This document shows, in pieces, positions 7,949 to 31,828 of a DNA stretch of 64,000 bases. The DNA is from Escherichia coli (lineage in GTDB: Bacteria > Pseudomonadota > Gammaproteobacteria > Enterobacterales > Enterobacteriaceae). Both the position numbers and the translations under genes were made by a program. Under the pieces are notes generated by a model. That model did no database searches, was not told where the DNA came from, and saw only the letters and a list, made by a program, of their open reading frames with translations. The stretch lies in NCBI RefSeq assembly GCF_003334815.1, contig NZ_QOWO01000002.1; one strand, 5' to 3'. Numbering within the stretch: position 1 is the stretch's first letter; each line of letters begins with the position of its first letter.

Positions 7949-9493
7949 ATGTGGGATGTCATTGATTTATCGCGCTGGCAGTTTGCTCTGACCGCGCTGT
8001 ATCACTTTTTATTTGTACCCCTTACCCTGGGGCTGATTTTTTTGCTGGCTATTATGGAAACCATTTACGTGGTCACCGGCAAAACAATCTACCGCGATAT
8101 GACGCGCTTCTGGGGTAAGCTCTTCGGTATCAATTTTGCTCTTGGCGTGGCTACCGGCCTGACCATGGAGTTTCAGTTTGGTACTAACTGGTCATTCTAT
8201 TCCAACTATGTGGGCGATATTTTTGGCGCACCGCTGGCGATGGAAGCATTAATGGCCTTCTTCCTCGAATCCACCTTTGTCGGGCTGTTCTTCTTCGGCT
8301 GGCAACGGCTGAATAAATACCAGCACCTGCTGGTGACGTGGCTGGTGGCGTTCGGTTCAAATCTCTCTGCGTTGTGGATATTGAATGCCAACGGTTGGAT
8401 GCAATACCCGACCGGTGCGCATTTTGATATCGACACCCTGCGTATGGAGATGACCAGCTTCAGCGAGCTGGTCTTTAATCCGGTCAGCCAGGTGAAATTT
8501 GTGCACACCGTAATGGCGGGCTACGTGACCGGGGCCATGTTTATTATGGCGATCAGCGCCTGGTATTTACTGCGCGGACGGGAGCGCGATGTCGCATTAC
8601 GCTCGTTTGCCATCGGTTCCGTCTTCGGTACTCTGGCGATTATCGGTACCCTGCAACTCGGAGACAGTTCTGCGTATGAAGTCGCGCAAGTACAACCGGT
8701 AAAACTGGCGGCGATGGAAGGGGAGTGGCAAACGGAACCTGCACCTGCACCGTTCCATGTGGTTGCCTGGCCGGAACAGGATCAAGAGCGTAACGCCTTT
8801 GCCCTCAAAATTCCCGCGCTGCTAGGGATCCTCGCCACTCACTCATTAGATAAACCCGTGCCGGGTCTGAAGAATTTGATGGCTGAAACCTACCCACGCT
8901 TGCAACGCGGACGTATGGCCTGGCTGTTAATGCAGGAAATATCGCAAGGCAATCGTGAGCCGCATGTGTTGCAGGCATTCCGGGGACTGGAAGGTGACCT
9001 GGGCTACGGCATGTTGCTCTCCCGCTATGCGCCGGATATGAATCATGTCACAGCCGCACAGTACCAGGCGGCGATGCGTGGCGCGATACCTCAGGTTGCG
9101 CCGGTATTCTGGAGTTTCCGCATCATGGTGGGCTGTGGTTCCCTGCTGCTACTGGTGATGCTGATTGCGCTTGTCCAGACGCTGCGTGGCAAAATCGACC
9201 AGCATCGCTGGGTGCTGAAAATGGCGCTCTGGAGTTTGCCGTTGCCGTGGATTGCGATTGAAGCCGGGTGGTTTATGACCGAGTTTGGTCGTCAGCCGTG
9301 GGCGATACAGGACATCTTACCGACATACTCCGCGCACTCCGCTTTAACCACAGGACAACTGGCTTTCTCACTGATCATGATCGTAGGGCTTTACACCCTG
9401 TTCTTAATCGCCGAAGTCTACCTGATGCAGAAATATGCCCGTCTGGGGCCGAGCGCGATGCAGAGTGAACAACCGACGCAGCAACAGGGGTAA
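7949..9493 (+). CDS. appC: cytochrome bd-II ubiquinol oxidase subunit I
   Basis: ORF 7943..9493; 514-aa CydA-family membrane protein starting [26 protein letters not shown]. Confidence 0.9.
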
Positions 9494-9504
9494 AGGAGAA
9501 AATC

Positions 9505-10641
9505 ATGTTTGATTATGAAACATTGCGCTTCATCTGGTGGCTGCTGATTGGCGTGATCCTGGTGGTCTTTATGATCTCCGACGGATTTGACATGGGGATC
9601 GGCTGTCTGCTGCCGCTGGTGGCGCGTAATGATGATGAACGCCGGATAGTGATAAACAGCGTTGGTGCACACTGGGAAGGCAACCAGGTCTGGTTGATCC
9701 TCGCTGGTGGGGCATTATTTGCCGCCTGGCCCAGAGTGTATGCAGCGGCGTTTTCCGGCTTTTATGTGGCGATGATCCTGGTGCTGTGCTCACTGTTCTT
9801 CCGCCCGCTGGCCTTTGATTATCGCGGAAAAATCGCCGATGCACGCTGGCGTAAAATGTGGGACGCCGGTCTGGTCATCGGCAGTCTGGTGCCGCCGGTA
9901 GTCTTCGGTATCGCCTTCGGCAACTTGTTGCTCGGCGTGCCGTTTGCCTTCACACCGCAATTACGCGTGGAGTATCTCGGCAGCTTCTGGCAACTGCTGA
10001 CGCCATTCCCTTTATTGTGCGGATTGCTCAGCCTTGGGATGGTGATTTTGCAAGGTGGCGTCTGGTTACAACTGAAAACTGTTGGTGTGATTCATCTGCG
10101 TTCACAGCTGGCGACCAAACGCGCTGCACTGTTGGTGATGCTGTGCTTTTTGCTGGCGGGTTACTGGCTGTGGGTCGGTATTGATGGCTTTGTACTGCTC
10201 GCCCAGGATGCTAACGGTCCTTCCAATCCGTTAATGAAACTGGTGGCAGTGCTACCTGGTGCCTGGATGAATAATTTTGTCGAGTCGCCCGTTTTGTGGA
10301 TCTTCCCGCTGCTGGGATTCTTCTGCCCATTGCTGACGGTGATGGCGATTTATCGTGGTCGCCCGGGTTGGGGATTTTTGATGGCATCATTGATGCAATT
10401 TGGCGTGATTTTCACGGCAGGCATCACGCTGTTCCCCTTTGTCATGCCGTCAAGCGTGAGTCCGATCTCCAGCCTGACGTTGTGGGACAGTACTTCCAGT
10501 CAGCTGACGCTGAGCATTATGTTGGTAATCGTGCTGATATTTTTGCCCATTGTGTTGCTCTACACTCTCTGGAGCTACTACAAAATGTGGGGGCGCATGA
10601 CAACAGAAACTCTCCGCCGTAACGAAAACGAGTTGTACTAA
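9505..10641 (+). CDS. appB: cytochrome bd-II ubiquinol oxidase subunit II
   Basis: 378-aa CydB-family polytopic membrane ORF immediately downstream of appC. Confidence 0.9.
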
Positions 10642-22863: not shown

Positions 22864-25608
22864 TCAAATCGCGTTCAGGTCTTTCTTATGCAACCATGCT
22901 TCCAGAGCGGCAACACTGCGTGTAATTTCTTCGTGTGGAAGGGGGGCAGATAATGGCTGCTGCTCCAGTTGTGCGCATAGCTGGCTGGCGATATGCATTC
23001 CCAGACTCGAGCAACTGCTTTTTAGCTGATGCGCGGCACGCTTTATTTTCTCGCTATCCTGACTGGCGCGGGCAATGTCGATTTCATCGAGAAGCGGCAG
23101 GGCATGTTGTGTAAATAATACCAGCCATTCGTGGATCTTCTCCGTCCCCATTAACTGAGCATCTTCATTGAGTTGCGATACATCCAGCGATTGATCATTA
23201 TTGACTTGCAGTTGGAGATAGTGCGCCAGTAACTGACCGAGCACTTCACGCGGCACCGGTTTAGGGATAATCCCGCGGAATAATGAACTGGTACGCTGGC
23301 GCAGCGTTTCGTCAATGACATGGGCGCTAAAGCCAATCAAAACCAGCGACGGATATTGCTGTGCCAGTTGTCGGGCAAGCGTAATGCCGTCGATATCCGG
23401 CAGATCAAAATCCACCAGTGCGGCAGCAAACGGTTCGCTATTTTGCAGTGTCTCTAAAGCCTGCGCGGCATTGCCAACAGCAACAATCTGCGCACCACTG
23501 GTTTTCAGCATCTCAATGGTAATTCGCTGGGTTAGCGGGTTATCTTCAATTAACAGCAAACGTAAACCGTCAAGACGCACCGCCTGATTGACTGTTTTTG
23601 GCACGGGTGCCGTGGCAACACGTAACGGCAAGCGTAAACAAAAACAGCTTCCAACCTCCGGCGTGCTGGTGGCGCTCAGTTCGCCGCCCATCGCCTGGGC
23701 CAGACGGCTACTGATAGTCAGTCCCAGCCCGGTGCCGCCGCGTTTGCCGCTTACCTGCACAAATGGCTGGAAGATTTCTGCCAGTTTCGCGGGATCAATA
23801 CCGCAGCCGCTGTCTTCCACTTCGACCAGCCATTGCTCGCCATCAGTGCGACTACGCAGGATAATGTACCCTTCGTCAGTAAAACGCAGGGCGTTGCTCA
23901 ACAGGTTGGTTATAACCTGACGAATACGTCGTGGATCGCCCATTAACGCGCACGGCATATCATCGGCAATTGCCGTTGCCAGGCGAATCGGGCGACCTTT
24001 CACCCGTCCGCTCATTAATTGCAGGGTACTTTCCAGCAGCGGGCGCGGTTCAAAGGGCTCATCGCTGACCGAAACATTCTTGCCACCTGCTTCGATAGCG
24101 GAATAATCGAGAATATCGTTGAGGATGGTCAGCAACGATTCACCAGAGTCAGTAATTGCCCGCAAATCATCACGCTGGGCGTTAAGTGCGGGGTTATCTG
24201 CCAGCAGTTGAGCAGTGCCGAGAATACCGTACAGCGGTGTGCGGATCTCATGGCTCATCGCCGCCAGAAACGCCGATTTTGCCTGGCTGGCTTTTTCTGC
24301 TTCCGCCCGTGCCTGTCGGTGTTCTATCACCAGTTCCTGCAATTCAGCTGTACGCGCTTTGACCTGCGCCGCCAGCTGTTCGCGGTGGCGATTCAGTGCA
24401 TGAACATTGCTGCGAAACGCATCCATCAGCCGCCCGATGGTATCCAGCTCCCGTACGCCAGCGGTTTCCGGGAAAGGGGAGTCAATATCACCGTCCAGCA
24501 GCCGTTGCAGCGCCTGCGTTTGTTCGGCAAGTGGACGCGTGACTGAGCGATAAACCACGCGCCAGAGGATCAGAATCAGTGCGCAAAGTGAAACCATCCC
24601 CAGCAATAACAGGCTGTATTGCCCGCGTGCACTCGCTTTTTCCAGATGCGCCAGTCCGTGCTGATTACGCAGCTCAATGGTGTCGACCAGCTGACTGACT
24701 TCGCTACTAAACTGCGCGAACTGGGCGATGTTATTTTGTGCGAGAGTTTGTAGGTGATTGCTGATTTCACTGTCCTGCTGATACAGCGCCAGCAAATCGC
24801 TATATTGGCTAACGGTAGTTAACGTTGTTGCGACCTGCGCACGAACACCCGGATCTTCAATGCGTATTTGCCGACGTTGCAGAATTTTCACCGCATTATT
24901 GAGCTGCTTTTCCAGCGTTGGTGCATTTTTCTGGATCTGCTCCAGCCCCAGATTCATCACCATTTGCTGCACCCGCAGAGCGCTAAGGCGCAGTTCATTC
25001 ATCTGGTTAACATACTCAAGATCGATATCAATCAGCCGATCGAGTGCACTTTCAGCAGCCTGACGCTGATCTTGTTCGATCAAATCGTAAATCCCGGCCT
25101 GGGTCGCTCCAGCGGAAGTTGTCGCATTATTCGCCTGACCTTGCGCCAGGCGTGCGATCTCATCGGCGGCAGCGACTATCTGCTGACTGAGTTGCTGTTG
25201 TTGCTGGCGCAGTTGCAAACGCTGCCCCACCAGTTCCCCTTGCTGACGTAACGAACGGGAGATCTCCTGCTCCTGTTGTTCAATAGCGGTGGTATCAAAA
25301 CCTTGTTCCCGTAACGCTTGCAGCAACGCATTAATCTTCAGGCTTTGTGCGGTGAGCATTCGCCCCTGCGCCTGCCACATCTTTTCGTTATCGGCACTGG
25401 TCAGGTTCTGCGCGGCGAAAAGTTCCCAGGCGCTGGCTTCGCTCAACTGGCGCGCCATATTCATGGTAGGAATCAATGCCTGAGTGTTGTCTTTTTCCAC
25501 CTGGCTGATAAAGCGCAGGTTGTACCATCCCACCAGGGTACTGGTCAGGGTTAACAGCGCCATCAGGGCAAAGCCCATCCAGAGTCTTCGGGTCAGGGTT
25601 AAATTCAC
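22864..25608 (-). CDS. torS: TMAO-responsive hybrid sensor histidine kinase
   Basis: 914-aa ORF with H-box (MSHEIRTPL), HATPase, receiver and C-terminal HPt regions; adjacent to torT/torR. Confidence 0.92.
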
Positions 25609-25690: not shown

Positions 25691-26719
25691 ATGCGCGTAC
25701 TGCTATTTTTACTTCTTTCCCTTTTCATGTTGCCGGCATTTTCGGCTGATAACCTGTTGCGCTGGCATGATGCGCAGCATTTCACGGTGCAAGCCTCTAC
25801 GCCGCTTAAAGCCAAACGCGCATGGAAACTGTGCGCGCTTTATCCCAGCCTGAAAGATTCATATTGGTTATCGTTGAACTATGGTATGCAGGAGGCTGCT
25901 CGCCGCTACGGTGTGGATTTAAAAGTGCTGGAGGCAGGCGGCTACAGCCAGTTGGCTACCCAGCAAGCACAAATCGACCAGTGTAAACAGTGGGGCGCAG
26001 AGGCCATTTTGCTCGGTAGTAGCACGACCTCATTTCCCGACCTGCAAAAGCAGGTAGCAAGTCTGCCGGTGATCGAACTGGTAAATGCTATTGATGCTCC
26101 CCAGGTGAAAAGCCGCGTTGGTGTGCCCTGGTTTCAGATGGGCTATCAACCGGGGCGATATCTGGTGCAATGGGCGCACGGTAAACCACTGAATGTGCTG
26201 TTGATGCCCGGACCCGATAACGCCGGGGGCAGTAAGGAGATGGTCGAGGGTTTTCGCGCAGCCATTGCCGGAAGCCTGGTGCGTATTGTTGATATTGCGC
26301 TTGGTGATAACGATATTGAAATCCAGCGTAACCTGTTGCAGGAGATGCTGGAACGCCATCCAGAAATCGACGTCGTTGCCGGAACGGCCATTGCGGCAGA
26401 GGCGGCAATGGGGGAAGGGCGTAACCTGAAAACGCCGCTTACCGTGGTGTCGTTTTATCTTTCACATCAGGTGTATCGCGGGCTGAAGCGGGGAAGAGTG
26501 ATTATGGCTGCCAGCGATCAAATGGTCTGGCAGGGGGAACTGGCGGTTGAGCAGGCCATCAGGCAATTACAGGGGCAATCGGTTTCTGATAATGTCAGCC
26601 CACCGATTTTAGTTCTGACGCCGAAAAATGCCGACCGTGAACATATTCGCCGCTCGCTGTCACCAGGGGGATTTCGTCCGGTCTATTTTTATCAGCACAC
26701 ATCAGCGGCTAAGAAATAA
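25691..26719 (+). CDS. torT: periplasmic TMAO-binding protein
   Basis: 342-aa ORF with signal peptide MRVLLFLLLSLFMLPAFSA; its 3' end overlaps convergent torR. Confidence 0.9.
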   Translation: MRVLLFLLLSLFMLPAFSADNLLRWHDAQHFTVQASTPLKAKRAWKLCALYPSLKDSYWLSLNYGMQEAARRYGVDLKVLEAGGYSQLATQQAQIDQCKQWGAEAILLGSSTTSFPDLQKQVASLPVIELVNAIDAPQVKSRVGVPWFQMGYQPGRYLVQWAHGKPLNVLLMPGPDNAGGSKEMVEGFRAAIAGSLVRIVDIALGDNDIEIQRNLLQEMLERHPEIDVVAGTAIAAEAAMGEGRNLKTPLTVVSFYLSHQVYRGLKRGRVIMAASDQMVWQGELAVEQAIRQLQGQSVSDNVSPPILVLTPKNADREHIRRSLSPGGFRPVYFYQHTSAAKK

Positions 26720-27384
26720 CCTTCACCATGTTGCGTCACCAGTAAATCCGCGCTGAGTTTATGACGTAAACGACGAATTAACACATCGACGGTGCGCAGG
26801 TCAGGGTTTTCCACCCGACGCGCAGAAAGCATACGTAGCAGACGTTCACGGCTGAGAATTTCGCCCGGATTCGTCACAAATGCCACCAACATTTCATACT
26901 CTGCGCGGGTCAGTTTAATCGGCTCGCCATCCCGCTCCAGCGTATGGCGCGACACATTCAGGCAATAACCGGCAAAGCGATAGCAGTTGTCCTGAGTGTG
27001 CGGTTGAGCTTGTCGCGCGAGGTCGATTCGCCAGAGCAGATTTTTCACCCGTACTACCAGTTCGCGCAGTTCCAGCGGTTTGGTGACGTAATCGTCTGCG
27101 CCCATTTCCAGCCCAACAATACGGTCAATCCGATCGCTGCGTCCGGTAACCAGAATAATCCCCACCGTTGAGCGTTCTCGCAGGGCGCGGGTTAACATCA
27201 GGCCATTTTCATCGGGTAAGTTGATATCCAGCAGAATTAAATCTACCGACTGATTCTGCATAATTTCCCGTAGCCCGGCACCGCTCGCCGTAACGGAAAC
27301 GGTATACCCCTCCTGAGTGAAGTAGGATTGTAATCGCGCCTGGGTAACCGGCTCATCTTCAACAATAACAATGTGATGTGGCAT
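26692..27384 (-). CDS. torR: OmpR-family response regulator of the torCAD operon
   Basis: 230-aa ORF MPHHIVIVEDEPVTQARLQSYF... (receiver plus winged-helix); divergent from torC. Confidence 0.92.
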   Translation of the reverse strand: MPHHIVIVEDEPVTQARLQSYFTQEGYTVSVTASGAGLREIMQNQSVDLILLDINLPDENGLMLTRALRERSTVGIILVTGRSDRIDRIVGLEMGADDYVTKPLELRELVVRVKNLLWRIDLARQAQPHTQDNCYRFAGYCLNVSRHTLERDGEPIKLTRAEYEMLVAFVTNPGEILSRERLLRMLSARRVENPDLRTVDVLIRRLRHKLSADLLVTQHGEGYFLAADVC

Positions 27385-27402
27385 CAGAGGGTTTTACTCA
27401 TT

Positions 27403-27465
27403 CTGTTCATATCTGTTCATATTCTGCCGTAAGCCGTTCATCCTGACCAGTGCCGCTGTTCATAT
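27403..27465 (+). promoter_or_regulatory. tor boxes: four direct decameric repeats (TorR binding sites) in the torR-torC intergenic region
   Basis: CTGTTCATAT at 27403..27412, 27413..27422 and 27456..27465, plus the degenerate CCGTTCATCC at 27434..27443, upstream of torC. Confidence 0.8.
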
Positions 27466-27513
27466 TTGCTCATTAAGATCGCTTCACTAAACCATAATTC
27501 TACAGGGGTTATT

Positions 27514-28686
27514 ATGCGGAAACTCTGGAACGCGCTACGCCGACCCAGTGCTCGTTGGTCGGTACTGGCGCTGGTCGCAATTGGGATTGTGATTGGCATT
27601 GCGCTGATTGTATTGCCACACGTTGGGATCAAAGTCACCAGCACAACCGAATTTTGTGTCAGTTGCCACAGTATGCAACCGGTGTATGAAGAATATAAAC
27701 AGTCGGTGCATTTCCAGAACGCCTCCGGCGTGCGAGCTGAATGCCATGACTGTCATATCCCGCCGGATATTCCAGGCATGGTGAAGCGCAAACTGGAAGC
27801 GAGCAATGATATCTACCAGACCTTTATTGCTCACTCCATTGATACACCTGAAAAATTCGAAGCCAAACGCGCGGAACTTGCCGAGCGTGAATGGGCGCGA
27901 ATGAAAGAAAACAACTCGGCAACCTGCCGCTCCTGCCATAACTACGATGCGATGGATCATGCGAAGCAGCATCCTGAAGCAGCACGTCAGATGAAGGTGG
28001 CAGCGAAAGATAATCAATCCTGCATCGACTGTCATAAAGGTATTGCCCACCAGTTACCGGATATGAGTAGCGGCTTCCGTAAGCAGTTCGATGAGCTGCG
28101 CGCCAGTGCTAATGACAGTGGTGACACGCTGTACTCTATTGATATTAAGCCAATTTATGCGGCGAAAGGCGATAAAGAAGCCTCTGGTTCTCTGCTGCCT
28201 GCTTCGGAAGTGAAAGTCCTTAAACGTGACGGCGACTGGCTGCAAATTGAAATTACCGGCTCGACGGAAAGCGCCGGACGTCAGCGTGTACTCACCCAAT
28301 TCCCAGGTAAACGCATCTTTGTTGCCTCGATTCGTGGTGATGTGCAGCAGCAGGTAAAAACGCTGGAGAAAACCACCGTTGCCGACACCAATACCGAGTG
28401 GAGCAAGTTGCAGGCCACTGCGTGGATGAAGAAAGGCGACATGGTGAACGATATCAAACCGATCTGGGCTTATGCGGATTCGTTGTACAACGGCACCTGT
28501 AACCAGTGCCACGGCGCACCGGAAATCGCCCACTTTGACGCTAACGGTTGGATCGGCACGCTCAACGGCATGATTGGCTTTACCAGTCTCGATAAACGTG
28601 AAGAACGCACCTTGTTGAAATATCTGCAAATGAATGCGTCTGACACCGCAGGTAAGGCTCACGGCGATAAGAAGGAAGAAAAATAA
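27514..28686 (+). CDS. torC: pentahaem c-type cytochrome, TMAO reductase electron donor
   Basis: ORF 27466..28686; 390-aa product from MRKLWNALRRPSARWSVLALVAIG with CxxCH haem-binding motifs (CVSCH, CHDCH, CRSCH, CIDCH, CNQCH). Confidence 0.9.
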   Translation: MRKLWNALRRPSARWSVLALVAIGIVIGIALIVLPHVGIKVTSTTEFCVSCHSMQPVYEEYKQSVHFQNASGVRAECHDCHIPPDIPGMVKRKLEASNDIYQTFIAHSIDTPEKFEAKRAELAEREWARMKENNSATCRSCHNYDAMDHAKQHPEAARQMKVAAKDNQSCIDCHKGIAHQLPDMSSGFRKQFDELRASANDSGDTLYSIDIKPIYAAKGDKEASGSLLPASEVKVLKRDGDWLQIEITGSTESAGRQRVLTQFPGKRIFVASIRGDVQQQVKTLEKTTVADTNTEWSKLQATAWMKKGDMVNDIKPIWAYADSLYNGTCNQCHGAPEIAHFDANGWIGTLNGMIGFTSLDKREERTLLKYLQMNASDTAGKAHGDKKEEK

Positions 28687-31232
28687 TGAACAATAACGAT
28701 CTCTTTCAGGCATCACGTCGGCGTTTTCTGGCACAACTCGGCGGCTTAACCGTCGCCGGGATGCTGGGGCCGTCATTGTTAACGCCGCGACGTGCGACTG
28801 CGGCGCAAGCGGCGACTGACGCTGTCATCTCGAAAGAGGGCATTCTTACCGGGTCGCACTGGGGGGCTATCCGCGCGACGGTGAAGGATGGTCGCTTTGT
28901 GGCGGCAAAACCGTTCGAACTGGATAAATATCCGTCGAAAATGATTGCCGGATTGCCGGATCACGTACACAACGCGGCGCGTATTCGTTATCCGATGGTA
29001 CGCGTGGACTGGCTGCGTAAGCGCCATCTCAGCGATACCTCCCAGCGCGGTGATAACCGTTTTGTGCGCGTGAGCTGGGATGAAGCCCTCGACATGTTCT
29101 ATGAAGAACTGGAACGCGTGCAGAAAACTCACGGGCCGAGTGCCTTGCTGACCGCCAGTGGTTGGCAATCGACGGGGATGTTCCATAACGCTTCGGGGAT
29201 GCTGGCGAAAGCTATTGCCTTGCATGGTAATAGCGTTGGTACGGGCGGAGATTAATCTACCGGTGCTGCGCAGGTGATCCTGCCGCGCGTAGTCGGTTCG
29301 ATGGAAGTGTATGAACAGCAAACCTCCTGGCCGCTGGTATTGCAGAACAGCAAAACCATTGTGCTGTGGGGCTCCGATTTGCTGAAAAACCAGCAAGCGA
29401 ACTGGTGGTGCCCGGATCACGATGTTTATGAATATTACGCGCAGCTAAAAGCGAAAGTCGCCGCCGGTGAAATTGAGGTCATCAGCATCGATCCGGTTGT
29501 CACATCCACCCATGAGTATCTGGGGCGCGAGCATGTGAAGCACATTGCGGTTAACCCGCAAACTGACGTGCCGCTGCAACTGGCGCTGGCACATACGCTG
29601 TACAGTGAAAACCTGTACGACAAAAACTTCCTTGCTAACTACTGTGTGGGTTTTGAGCAGTTCCTGCCGTATCTGCTGGGTGAGAAAGACGGTCAGCCGA
29701 AAGATGCCGCATGGGCTGAAAAACTGACCGGCATTGATGCCGAAACCATTCGTGGGCTGGCGCGGCAGATGGCGGCGAACAGAACGCAAATTATTGCTGG
29801 CTGGTGCGTGCAGCGTATGCAGCACGGTGAACAGTGGGCGTGGATGATTGTGGTTCTGGCGGCGATGCTGGGGCAAATTGGCCTGCCAGGTGGTGGTTTT
29901 GGTTTTGGCTGGCACTACAACGGCGCAGGCACGCCGGGGCGTAAAGGCGTTATTCTGAGTGGTTTCTCCGGCTCTACGTCGATTCCGCCTGTTCACGACA
30001 ACAGTGACTACAAAGGCTACAGCAGCACTATTCCGATTGCCCGTTTTATCGATGCGATCCTCGAACCGGGGAAAGTGATCAACTGGAACGGTAAATCGGT
30101 AAAACTGCCGCCGCTGAAAATGTGTATTTTTGCCGGAACTAACCCATTCCATCGCCATCAGCAGATCAACCGCATTATTGAAGGCTTGCGCAAGCTGGAA
30201 ACGGTTATCGCCATAGATAACCAGTGGACCTCAACCTGCCGCTTTGCCGATATCGTACTGCCTGCGACCACGCAGTTTGAGCGTAACGATCTCGACCAGT
30301 ACGGCAATCACTCCAACCGTGGCATTATCGCCATGAAACAGGTGGTGCCGCCGCAGTTCGAGGCGCGCAACGACTTCGATATTTTCCGCGAGCTGTGCCG
30401 TCGCTTTAATCGCGAAGAAGCCTTTACCGAAGGGCTGGACGAAATGGGCTGGCTGAAACGCATCTGGCAGGAAGGTGTACAGCAAGGCAAAGGACGCGGC
30501 GTTCATCTGCCAGCGTTTGATGACTTCTGGAATAACAAAGAGTACGTCGAGTTTGACCATCCGCAGATGTTTGTTCGCCACCAGGCATTCCGCGAAGATC
30601 CGGATCTCGAACCGCTGGGCACGCCGAGTGGCCTGATTGAGATCTACTCGAAAACTATCGCCGATATGAACTACGACGATTGTCAGGGGCATCCGATGTG
30701 GTTTGAGAAAATCGAACGCTCCCACGGTGGGCCTGGCTCGCAAAAGTATCCGTTGCATCTGCAATCTGTGCATCCGGATTTCCGACTTCACTCGCAGTTA
30801 TGTGAGTCGGAAACGCTGCGTCAGCAATATACGGTAGCGGGTAAAGAGCCAGTATTCATTAACCCGCAGGATGCCAGCGCGCGCGGTATTCGTAACGGTG
30901 ATGTGGTACGCGTCTTTAACGCTCGCGGTCAGGTGTTGGCAGGGGCAGTGGTTTCTGACCGCTATGCACCCGGCGTGGCACGAATTCACGAAGGGGCATG
31001 GTACGATCCAGATAAAGGCGGCGAGCCTGGTGCGCTGTGCAAATACGGTAACCCCAACGTGTTGACCATCGACATCGGTACATCGCAGCTGGCGCAGGCG
31101 ACCAGTGCGCACACTACGCTGGTGGAAATTGAGAAGTACAACGGAACAGTGGAGCAGGTGACGGCGTTTAACGGCCCCGTGGAGATGGTGGCGCAGTGCG
31201 AATATGTTCCCGCGTCGCAGGTGAAATCATGA
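28686..31232 (+). pseudogene. torA: TMAO reductase catalytic subunit (molybdopterin, Tat signal) interrupted by an in-frame TAA at 29253..29255
   Basis: ORF 28686..29255 (MNNNDLFQASRRRFLAQLGG... ending ...HGNSVGTGGD-stop) and ORF 29274..31232 are in the same frame and together span an 848-codon TorA; the single TAA lies between GGD and STGAAQVILPRV. Confidence 0.85.
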
Positions 31233-31828
31233 CCACGCTGACAGCACAACAGATTGCCTGTGTTTACGCCTGGCTAGCGCAGTTGTTCTCCCGTGAGCTG
31301 GACGATGAACAACTGACGCAAATCGCCAGTGCGCAGATGGCTGAATGGTTTTCGTTGCTGAAAAGCGAACCGCCGCTCACTGCGGCGGTGAACGAGCTGG
31401 AAAACCGTATTGCCACGCTGACAGTACGTGACGATGCCCGTCTGGAACTGGCCGCGGACTTTTGCGGCCTGTTTCTGATGACCGACAAACAAGCGGCGCT
31501 GCCGTATGCATCGGCCTACAAACAGGACGAGCAAGAGATTAAACGCTTGTTAGTTGAGGCAGGGATGGAAACCAGCGGCAATTTCAACGAACCGGCAGAT
31601 CATCTGGCGATCTATCTCGAATTGCTCAGCCATCTGCATTTTTCGCTGGGAGAGGGGACCGTTCCTGCGCGAAGAATCGACAGTTTGCGGCAAAAAACAC
31701 TGACGGCGCTGTGGCAATGGTTACCAGAGTTTGTTGCGCGTTGTCGTCAGTATGACAGCTTTGGTTTTTACGCGGCACTAAGCCAGTTATTGCTGGTGTT
31801 AGTGGAGTGCGACCACCAAAACAGATAA
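31229..31828 (+). CDS. torD: TorA-specific chaperone (redox enzyme maturation protein)
   Basis: ORF 31196..31828; 199-aa product from [20 protein letters not shown]; start overlaps torA stop. Confidence 0.9.

Follow-up and report, generated by a model that had tools for sequence, protein, structure and literature searches.

The pho boxes recognized by PhoB, like other operators of the OmpR/PhoB family of response regulators, are direct repeats with a spacing of about one helical turn that stand beside promoters in which the −35 element is weak or absent. The tor boxes of Escherichia coli K-12, which lie in the spacer that separates torR from the divergently oriented torCAD genes, were reportedly mapped in primary papers by Mejean in 1994, Simon in 1995 (Mol Microbiol 17:971), and Ansaldi in 2000 (J Bacteriol 182:961). 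Boxes 1, 2, and 4 of this set are CTGTTCATAT and box 3 is CCGTTCATCC; box 3 alone gives no gel shift with TorR, which likely occupies it in a box 4-dependent manner (PMC9239176). Genomic SELEX with TorR yielded one peak, which lay in the torR/torC spacer and appeared whether or not acetyl phosphate was present (PMC5934670). A further paper, which cites Ansaldi 2000 for these points, states that TorR binds the boxes in vivo both phosphorylated and unphosphorylated, and that the high-affinity site serves torR autoregulation and torCAD expression (PMC5294996).

The first finding of this analysis is that the repeats at positions 27385–27513 of the window—the whole stretch of 64,000 nucleotides that was analysed—are almost certainly the canonical TorR operator of the divergent torR/torCAD promoter, unchanged from K-12, in a genome whose torA gene carries a clone-level stop codon. 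As judged from the ORF coordinates, this interval is exactly the 129-bp intergenic spacer running from torR, on the minus strand, to torC, on the plus strand, and a 301-bp query over the spacer finds a match in 5,417 of the 5,426 complete E. coli genomes, where the annotation names its neighbours torR and torC. The original prediction had recognized three perfect tor boxes and a degenerate one in this spacer, and had named alignment to the characterized tor promoter as one way to check them. All four boxes are found where it placed them (Table 1), their sequences are those published for tor boxes (PMC9239176), and alignment to K-12 MG1655 gives identity at 129 of 129 spacer positions. There are no differences to MG1655 anywhere within 27278–28261, and the K-12 torR–torCAD region has the same flanking genes, the same boxes 1 to 4, and the same spacings. 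Over its entire length, the window differs from MG1655 at 19 positions in all and lacks the IS1D copy that K-12 has between cspH and gfcA (about 19984); an extra G in efeU (about 50891) repairs the reading frame, which is disrupted in K-12. The source is thus a K-12-like strain of phylogroup A and not K-12 itself, and it is not one of the 5,426 complete genomes. While the operator is without difference, this clone has torA Y190*, torC W250S, and torT P196L, none of which is found in K-12. The regulator gene torR shows a single difference to K-12, which is synonymous (A36), and the Pfam domains Response_reg and Trans_reg_C are found in TorR on identical contigs. What would be expected of a TorR operator was thus found at this locus, namely the repeats themselves, a position in a divergent spacer upstream of the torC promoter, identity with K-12, a cognate TorR as well as TorS and TorT encoded alongside, and phase and cores that are kept in orthologous loci. 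Nothing counts against the identification as tor boxes, which are already known and constitute a textbook OmpR/PhoB-family operator. By identity with the K-12 sequence, TorR binding and TMAO- and TorR-dependent transcription are predicted in this clone as well.

Table 1. Features of the tor locus, with positions in the window.
Feature	Positions	Strand	Description
torS, sensor kinase	22864..25608	-	Intact, 914 aa
torT, periplasmic TMAO-binding protein	25691..26719	+	Full length (342 aa); private P196L, 26277 C>T
torR, OmpR/PhoB-family response regulator	26692..27384	-	Intact, 230 aa
tor box 1	27403..27412	+	Exact CTGTTCATAT; distal half of high-affinity TorR site
tor box 2	27413..27422	+	Exact CTGTTCATAT; abuts box 1
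tor box 3	27434..27443	+	CCGTTCATCC; degenerate low-affinity box
box 3–box 4 spacer	27444..27455	+	CTGACCAGTGCC; conserved
tor box 4	27456..27465	+	Exact CTGTTCATAT; promoter-proximal
torC −10 hexamer TAAGAT	27474..27479	+	Placed as in PMC10845959; predicted +1 near 27486
torC, pentahaem cytochrome	27514..28686	+	Full length; private W250S, 28262 G>C
torA, TMAO reductase, interrupted pseudogene	28686..31232	+	One internal stop; otherwise the K-12 allele
Premature stop TAA in torA	29253..29255	+	Tyr190 TAC>TAA, 29255 C>A
torD, chaperone	31229..31828	+	Intact, 199 aa; start overlaps torA end

The three perfect boxes stand out clearly from the rest of the window. The exact decamer CTGTTCATAT occurs three times in the 64 kb, always on the plus strand and always in the spacer, for an expectation of 0.13, and none of 100 shuffles contained at least three exact copies. 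Box 3 is a different case, with three mismatches to the consensus: its mismatch score alone means little because the window holds 474 matches of this quality versus 419 expected, and it is accepted because its fixed phase and its GTTCA core are kept in five genera. The start-to-start distances of the successive boxes are 10, 21, and 22 nt, which places all four roughly on one face of the helix. The description of the boxes as two pairs is only loosely right. Boxes 1 and 2 do abut, but 12 nt intervene between boxes 3 and 4, which stand two helical turns apart, and the phrase is the wording of the literature rather than a symmetrical geometry. Comparison with the pho boxes highlights both similarities and differences. 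As in the pho system, the tor boxes are arranged head to tail and phased at multiples of 10–11 bp, the proximal site adjoins a promoter that has no recognizable −35 element, and the regulator belongs to the same family. The differences are the consensus, CTGTTCATAT in tor; the arrangement of the four units, which form one abutting pair plus two singly spaced boxes; and the distal tor pair, which doubles as a repressor site for the divergent regulator gene. Two decamers that flank the set, TTTACTCATT (27393–27402) and TTGCTCATTA (27466–27475), were considered as extra boxes and were rejected because neither is kept in Salmonella, Edwardsiella, or Providencia.

Conservation of the box block is pronounced both within E. 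coli and beyond it. An exact copy of the 63 bp that run from box 1 through box 4 is present in 5,101 of the 5,416 complete E. coli genomes (94%), and an 83-mer comprising the block plus flanks is exact in 4,023 of the complete genomes; the commonest variant sampled, G>A at 27468, lies outside the boxes and within the rejected unit TTGCTCATTA. Other genera were scanned with the 18-mer CTGTTCATATCTGTTCAT, using one genome per species, a search that also returned unrelated chance matches. The tor loci retrieved came from Escherichia albertii, E. whittamii, Salmonella enterica subsp. arizonae and diarizonae, and four Edwardsiella, three Providencia, and two Grimontia species. The tandem of boxes 1 and 2 is verbatim in Escherichia, Salmonella, Edwardsiella, Providencia, and Grimontia, an invariance that exists by construction since the loci were retrieved with that pattern, whereas boxes 3 and 4, the spacings, and the −10 region are independent of it. 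The 11-nt and 12-nt spacings are kept in Salmonella, Edwardsiella, Providencia, and Grimontia, and all five genera share, without variation, the TTCATAT of box 4 and the GTTCA core of box 3, the latter always in the same phase; ATAAGATC, in the −10 region, does not vary in four genera and keeps a fixed distance to box 4. Of the 12 spacer positions between boxes 3 and 4, eight are invariant in four enterobacterial genera, and this spacer, CTGACCAGTGnC, is conserved across Escherichia, Salmonella, Edwardsiella, and Providencia; the spacer is not kept in Grimontia. In the same four genera the spacer CTGACCAGTGCC is conserved nearly as well as the boxes, and it occupies the place expected of a −35 contact or of an additional weak TorR half-site. 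In Salmonella enterica, represented by serovar Cerro 87 (PMC9239176) and by the arizonae and diarizonae loci, boxes 1, 2, and 4 are also CTGTTCATAT, box 3 is CCGTTCAT(C/T)C, and the spacings and the ATAAGATC −10 region are the same as in E. coli. Salmonella differs from E. coli in spacer bases and in the 5′ UTR, and its promoter region showed no activity in an E. coli reporter (PMC10845959).

Natural variants of the boxes exist in other E. coli. The tandem unit formed by boxes 1 and 2 (27403–27422) varies in copy number among complete genomes: PMV-1 has three tandem copies, with approximately 86 genomes at at least 99% identity to the three-copy query, and JNEC-KY204 has a single copy, with approximately 20 genomes at at least 99% identity. 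A 43-bp box-to-box deletion that leaves two boxes is present in one genome, OkiPb01695, and Providencia vermicola has a third, degenerate tandem box. In box 3, the variants at 27435–27436 are CTGTTCATCC, which is nearer the consensus, in PMV-1 and B20123, and CCATTCATCC in JNEC-KY204.

The boxes adjoin the torC promoter, whose −10 element has been placed in TTGCT(nnnn)AAGAT, implying a 5′ UTR of about 28 nt (PMC10845959). There are 8 nt between the end of box 4 and the −10 hexamer, and with the −10 element named in that one paper box 4 would span roughly −30 to −21 and box 1 roughly −83 to −74, counted from +1. A scan for consensus sigma-70 promoters and terminators over 27300–27600 found none, which fits an activator-dependent torC promoter and leaves the torR promoter unplaced. 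A cofactor-sensing element has been proposed in the torC leader (PMC10845959); an Rfam scan of 26000–29500 at E ≤ 1 gave no match, and the leader thus falls in no described RNA family.

The second finding concerns torA, which the original prediction had described as carrying a premature stop. This is indeed the case, the codon that is TAC in K-12 being TAA here and the same change being repeated in independent public datasets. Translation of 28686–31235 yields the 848-codon TorA frame with a single internal stop, at codon 190, and the rest intact; the best torA matches among complete genomes have exactly one mismatch (a count calculated from their bit score of 4704), and torA contains no second lesion. 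As in a genuine pseudogene, the in-frame stop removes most of the catalytic domain, the 189-aa fragment retaining no more than Molybdopterin_N and the beginning of the Molybdopterin domain, and with this truncation TorA protein and activity are presumably lost. A 71-mer centred on the stop has an exact match in none of the 5,191 complete E. coli genomes that align, and the stop is confined to window-identical contigs from about eight public datasets. Codon 190 is a site with three alleles, TAC in K-12 and relatives, TAT in two representative E. coli sequences (L028 and L033), and TAA in this clone.

The torA stop has company on the private branch of the clone. When the window is compared with its two closest complete genomes, NCTC9100 and 52F4, four private changes appear between 20000 and 44999: torT P196L, torC W250S, torA Y190*, and one synonymous rutB site. 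The torT allele is present in none of 5,327 matching complete E. coli genomes, and the torC allele in none of 4,129. Twelve TorC orthologues, with identities as low as 49% and ranging from Escherichia to Grimontia, all keep Trp250, a conservation that points to W250S as a loss-of-function change, and TorC function is probably impaired; in TorT, position 196 is variable among orthologues. The etk tyrosine kinase gene (12239–14419, minus strand) is hit by three disabling private lesions, W636* (12512 C>T) and 1-base deletions at 13053 and 13343. Its 374-aa N-terminal fragment is found on eight public contigs, SRR10357323 among them, and the etk lesions therefore belong to the same clone as the torA stop. 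The six private coding changes in etk and tor comprise two nonsense, two frameshift, and two missense changes, whereas the three elsewhere in the 64 kb are all synonymous, a split for which a hand-calculated Fisher test on these small counts gives p of about 0.01; two more private changes are intergenic. The private substitutions (12512, 26277, 28262, 29255, 42213, 47701, 50487, 53169, and 54304) are all at G:C pairs, with six GC>AT, two GC>TA, and one GC>CG, a spectrum that fits either an unfiltered bias of spontaneous mutation or a history of mutagenesis. Eleven private changes in 64 kb make a long branch for a clone.

How old is the torA lesion? The original prediction took the preserved boxes to suggest that it is recent, a view that is supported only in part. 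The lesion is young in absolute terms, being absent from all 5,191 complete genomes and restricted to about eight datasets, but the preserved boxes cannot date it. The five silent private changes in about 17 kb of effectively neutral sequence lead us to an estimated neutral rate of about 3e-4 substitutions per site along the private branch and, over the same branch, to about 0.01 expected substitutions in the 40 bp of boxes. The intact boxes are uninformative on the age of the lesion for three reasons. First, with about 0.01 mutations expected in 40 bp, they would be expected to be intact in any case. Second, the box block is near-invariant within E. coli anyway. Third, boxes 1 and 2 also serve torR autoregulation.

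One reading of the private changes is that tor was unconstrained, or selected against, for much of the private history of the clone, and that the stop is not especially recent on that branch. We take this to be a serious possibility, although its probability falls short of even. Three of the four private changes between 20000 and 44999 are tor alleles found in no complete genome, one of them replaces the invariant W250 of TorC, and the changes in etk and tor are disabling or missense where the other coding changes are synonymous (p of about 0.01). Moreover, an unconstrained 9-kb tor locus would be expected to take about 2.6 hits at the estimated neutral rate, and three are seen. However, the counts are small, P196L may be a tolerated polymorphism since its position in TorT is variable, and the order of the three tor mutations cannot be read because all clone members found are identical here. 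No second torA lesion occurs in the 1,977 bp after the stop either, though only about 0.6 would be expected. Small as they are, these counts suggest that the tor pathway was released from constraint over a considerable part of the private branch, and the stop may not have been the first or only hit on the pathway, given TorC W250S and TorT P196L. Only tentatively do we go further and propose that TorCA-dependent TMAO respiration was lost through several hits (torA Y190*, torC W250S, and perhaps torT P196L) with the TorS/TorT/TorR sensor–regulator system and the operator untouched, etk hit three times, and all other private changes in the 64 kb silent, as a result of lineage-specific selection for loss, long relaxation, or a history of mutagenesis, and not in a single recent accident.

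Another reading is that the boxes have been kept by ongoing selection, exerted through torR autoregulation and torC/torD expression, however old the torA lesion may be. The role of boxes 1 and 2 in torR autoregulation, as given in the paper mentioned above (PMC5294996, citing Ansaldi 2000), speaks for it, as do the 94% of complete E. coli genomes in which the block is exact, the architecture kept across genera, and the intact torR, torS, and torD of the clone. However, with about 0.01 hits expected on the branch, selection is indistinguishable from lack of time in this clone, and the probably damaging change in TorC argues against strong selection on the output of the operon. We consider such selection possible but doubtful, and it would complement the main explanation, a canonical operator unchanged from K-12, rather than compete with it.

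It is very improbable that the stop is a sequencing or assembly error in an organism whose torA is intact. Such an error might show as one differing base in a gene that otherwise matches the K-12 allele, with none of the complete genomes sharing it, but the change is a substitution and not a homopolymer indel, and it recurs elsewhere. The same split into 189-aa and 652-aa ORFs is present on Logan contig SRR10357323_152, in 5–6 similar places, and on NCBI GCA_965212685.1 (two samples), and these stop-bearing contigs match the window at 100% identity along 18.6 kb and 14.5 kb. The lesion is therefore real, the same allele being found on 100%-identical contigs from independent datasets; arising at the level of a clone and fixed within a small one, it is neither a singleton nor a sequencing error. 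Other public assemblies have lost torA in other ways. Five further carriers of the 652-aa ORF, all with C at 29255, are independent lesions or messy assemblies. In ERZ28588736 the same 652-aa ORF occurs at the same locus, but a 4-bp deletion at 29235–29238 is responsible. In SRR33161000, an insertion in torA (8108–9977 of that sequence) with Mu-type HTH_Tnp_Mu_1 and HTH_35 genes lies upstream of the 652-aa ORF, and the remaining torA-disrupted public assemblies are frameshift-ridden. The 189-aa peptide found on many contigs was considered as truncated TorA and rejected, because most of these contigs simply end at 29252–29254, where the natural TAC/TAT polymorphism at codon 190 breaks assembly graphs. 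Finally, the notion that the repeats are a chance or slippage-generated tandem without regulatory role, although the copy number of the tandem box does vary by slippage in some strains, can be dismissed with near certainty in view of the 100 shuffles that never reach three copies, the position, phase, and cores kept over five genera, and the data on binding and mutagenesis published for the same sequence in K-12, which refute it.

With the canonical operator as the preferred reading, the mechanism established in the literature, known through secondary citations and general background, would apply here. TMAO-bound periplasmic TorT would activate the TorS phosphorelay, leading to phosphorylation of TorR, a winged-helix regulator of the OmpR/PhoB type that binds direct repeats head to tail. 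The abutting boxes 1 and 2 would form a high-affinity site, occupied with or without phosphorylation, which would repress torR because it lies 19–38 nt upstream of the torR start codon. Phosphorylated TorR would then fill box 4 and, cooperatively, the weak box 3, and occupancy of these two boxes beside the weak TAAGAT promoter would activate torCAD. That the regulatory architecture for TMAO induction is preserved, as originally proposed, is borne out by the intact TorS, TorT, TorR, operator, and promoter, and TMAO should still induce transcription because sensor, regulator, operator, and promoter are all in place. The resulting transcript would encode TorA only up to residue 189 of 848, together with a TorC in which an invariant Trp is replaced, and TorCA-dependent TMAO respiration is presumably lost. 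A polar effect on torD is likely as well, because its start overlaps the end of torA and translation would cease about 2 kb short of it.

The identification of these tor boxes is correct but ordinary, and its practical value is in annotation: torA in this sequence should be annotated as a pseudogene. A more general lesson is that the age of a lesion cannot be read from an adjacent 40-bp operator that has been conserved, when the branch is as short as this one. DmsABC is another reductase able to reduce TMAO. TorYZ has been named as a further TMAO reductase (PMC1805755). In this clone, the tor operon is predicted to be induced by TMAO without a working TorA, and the reduction of TMAO would fall to TorYZ or DmsABC.
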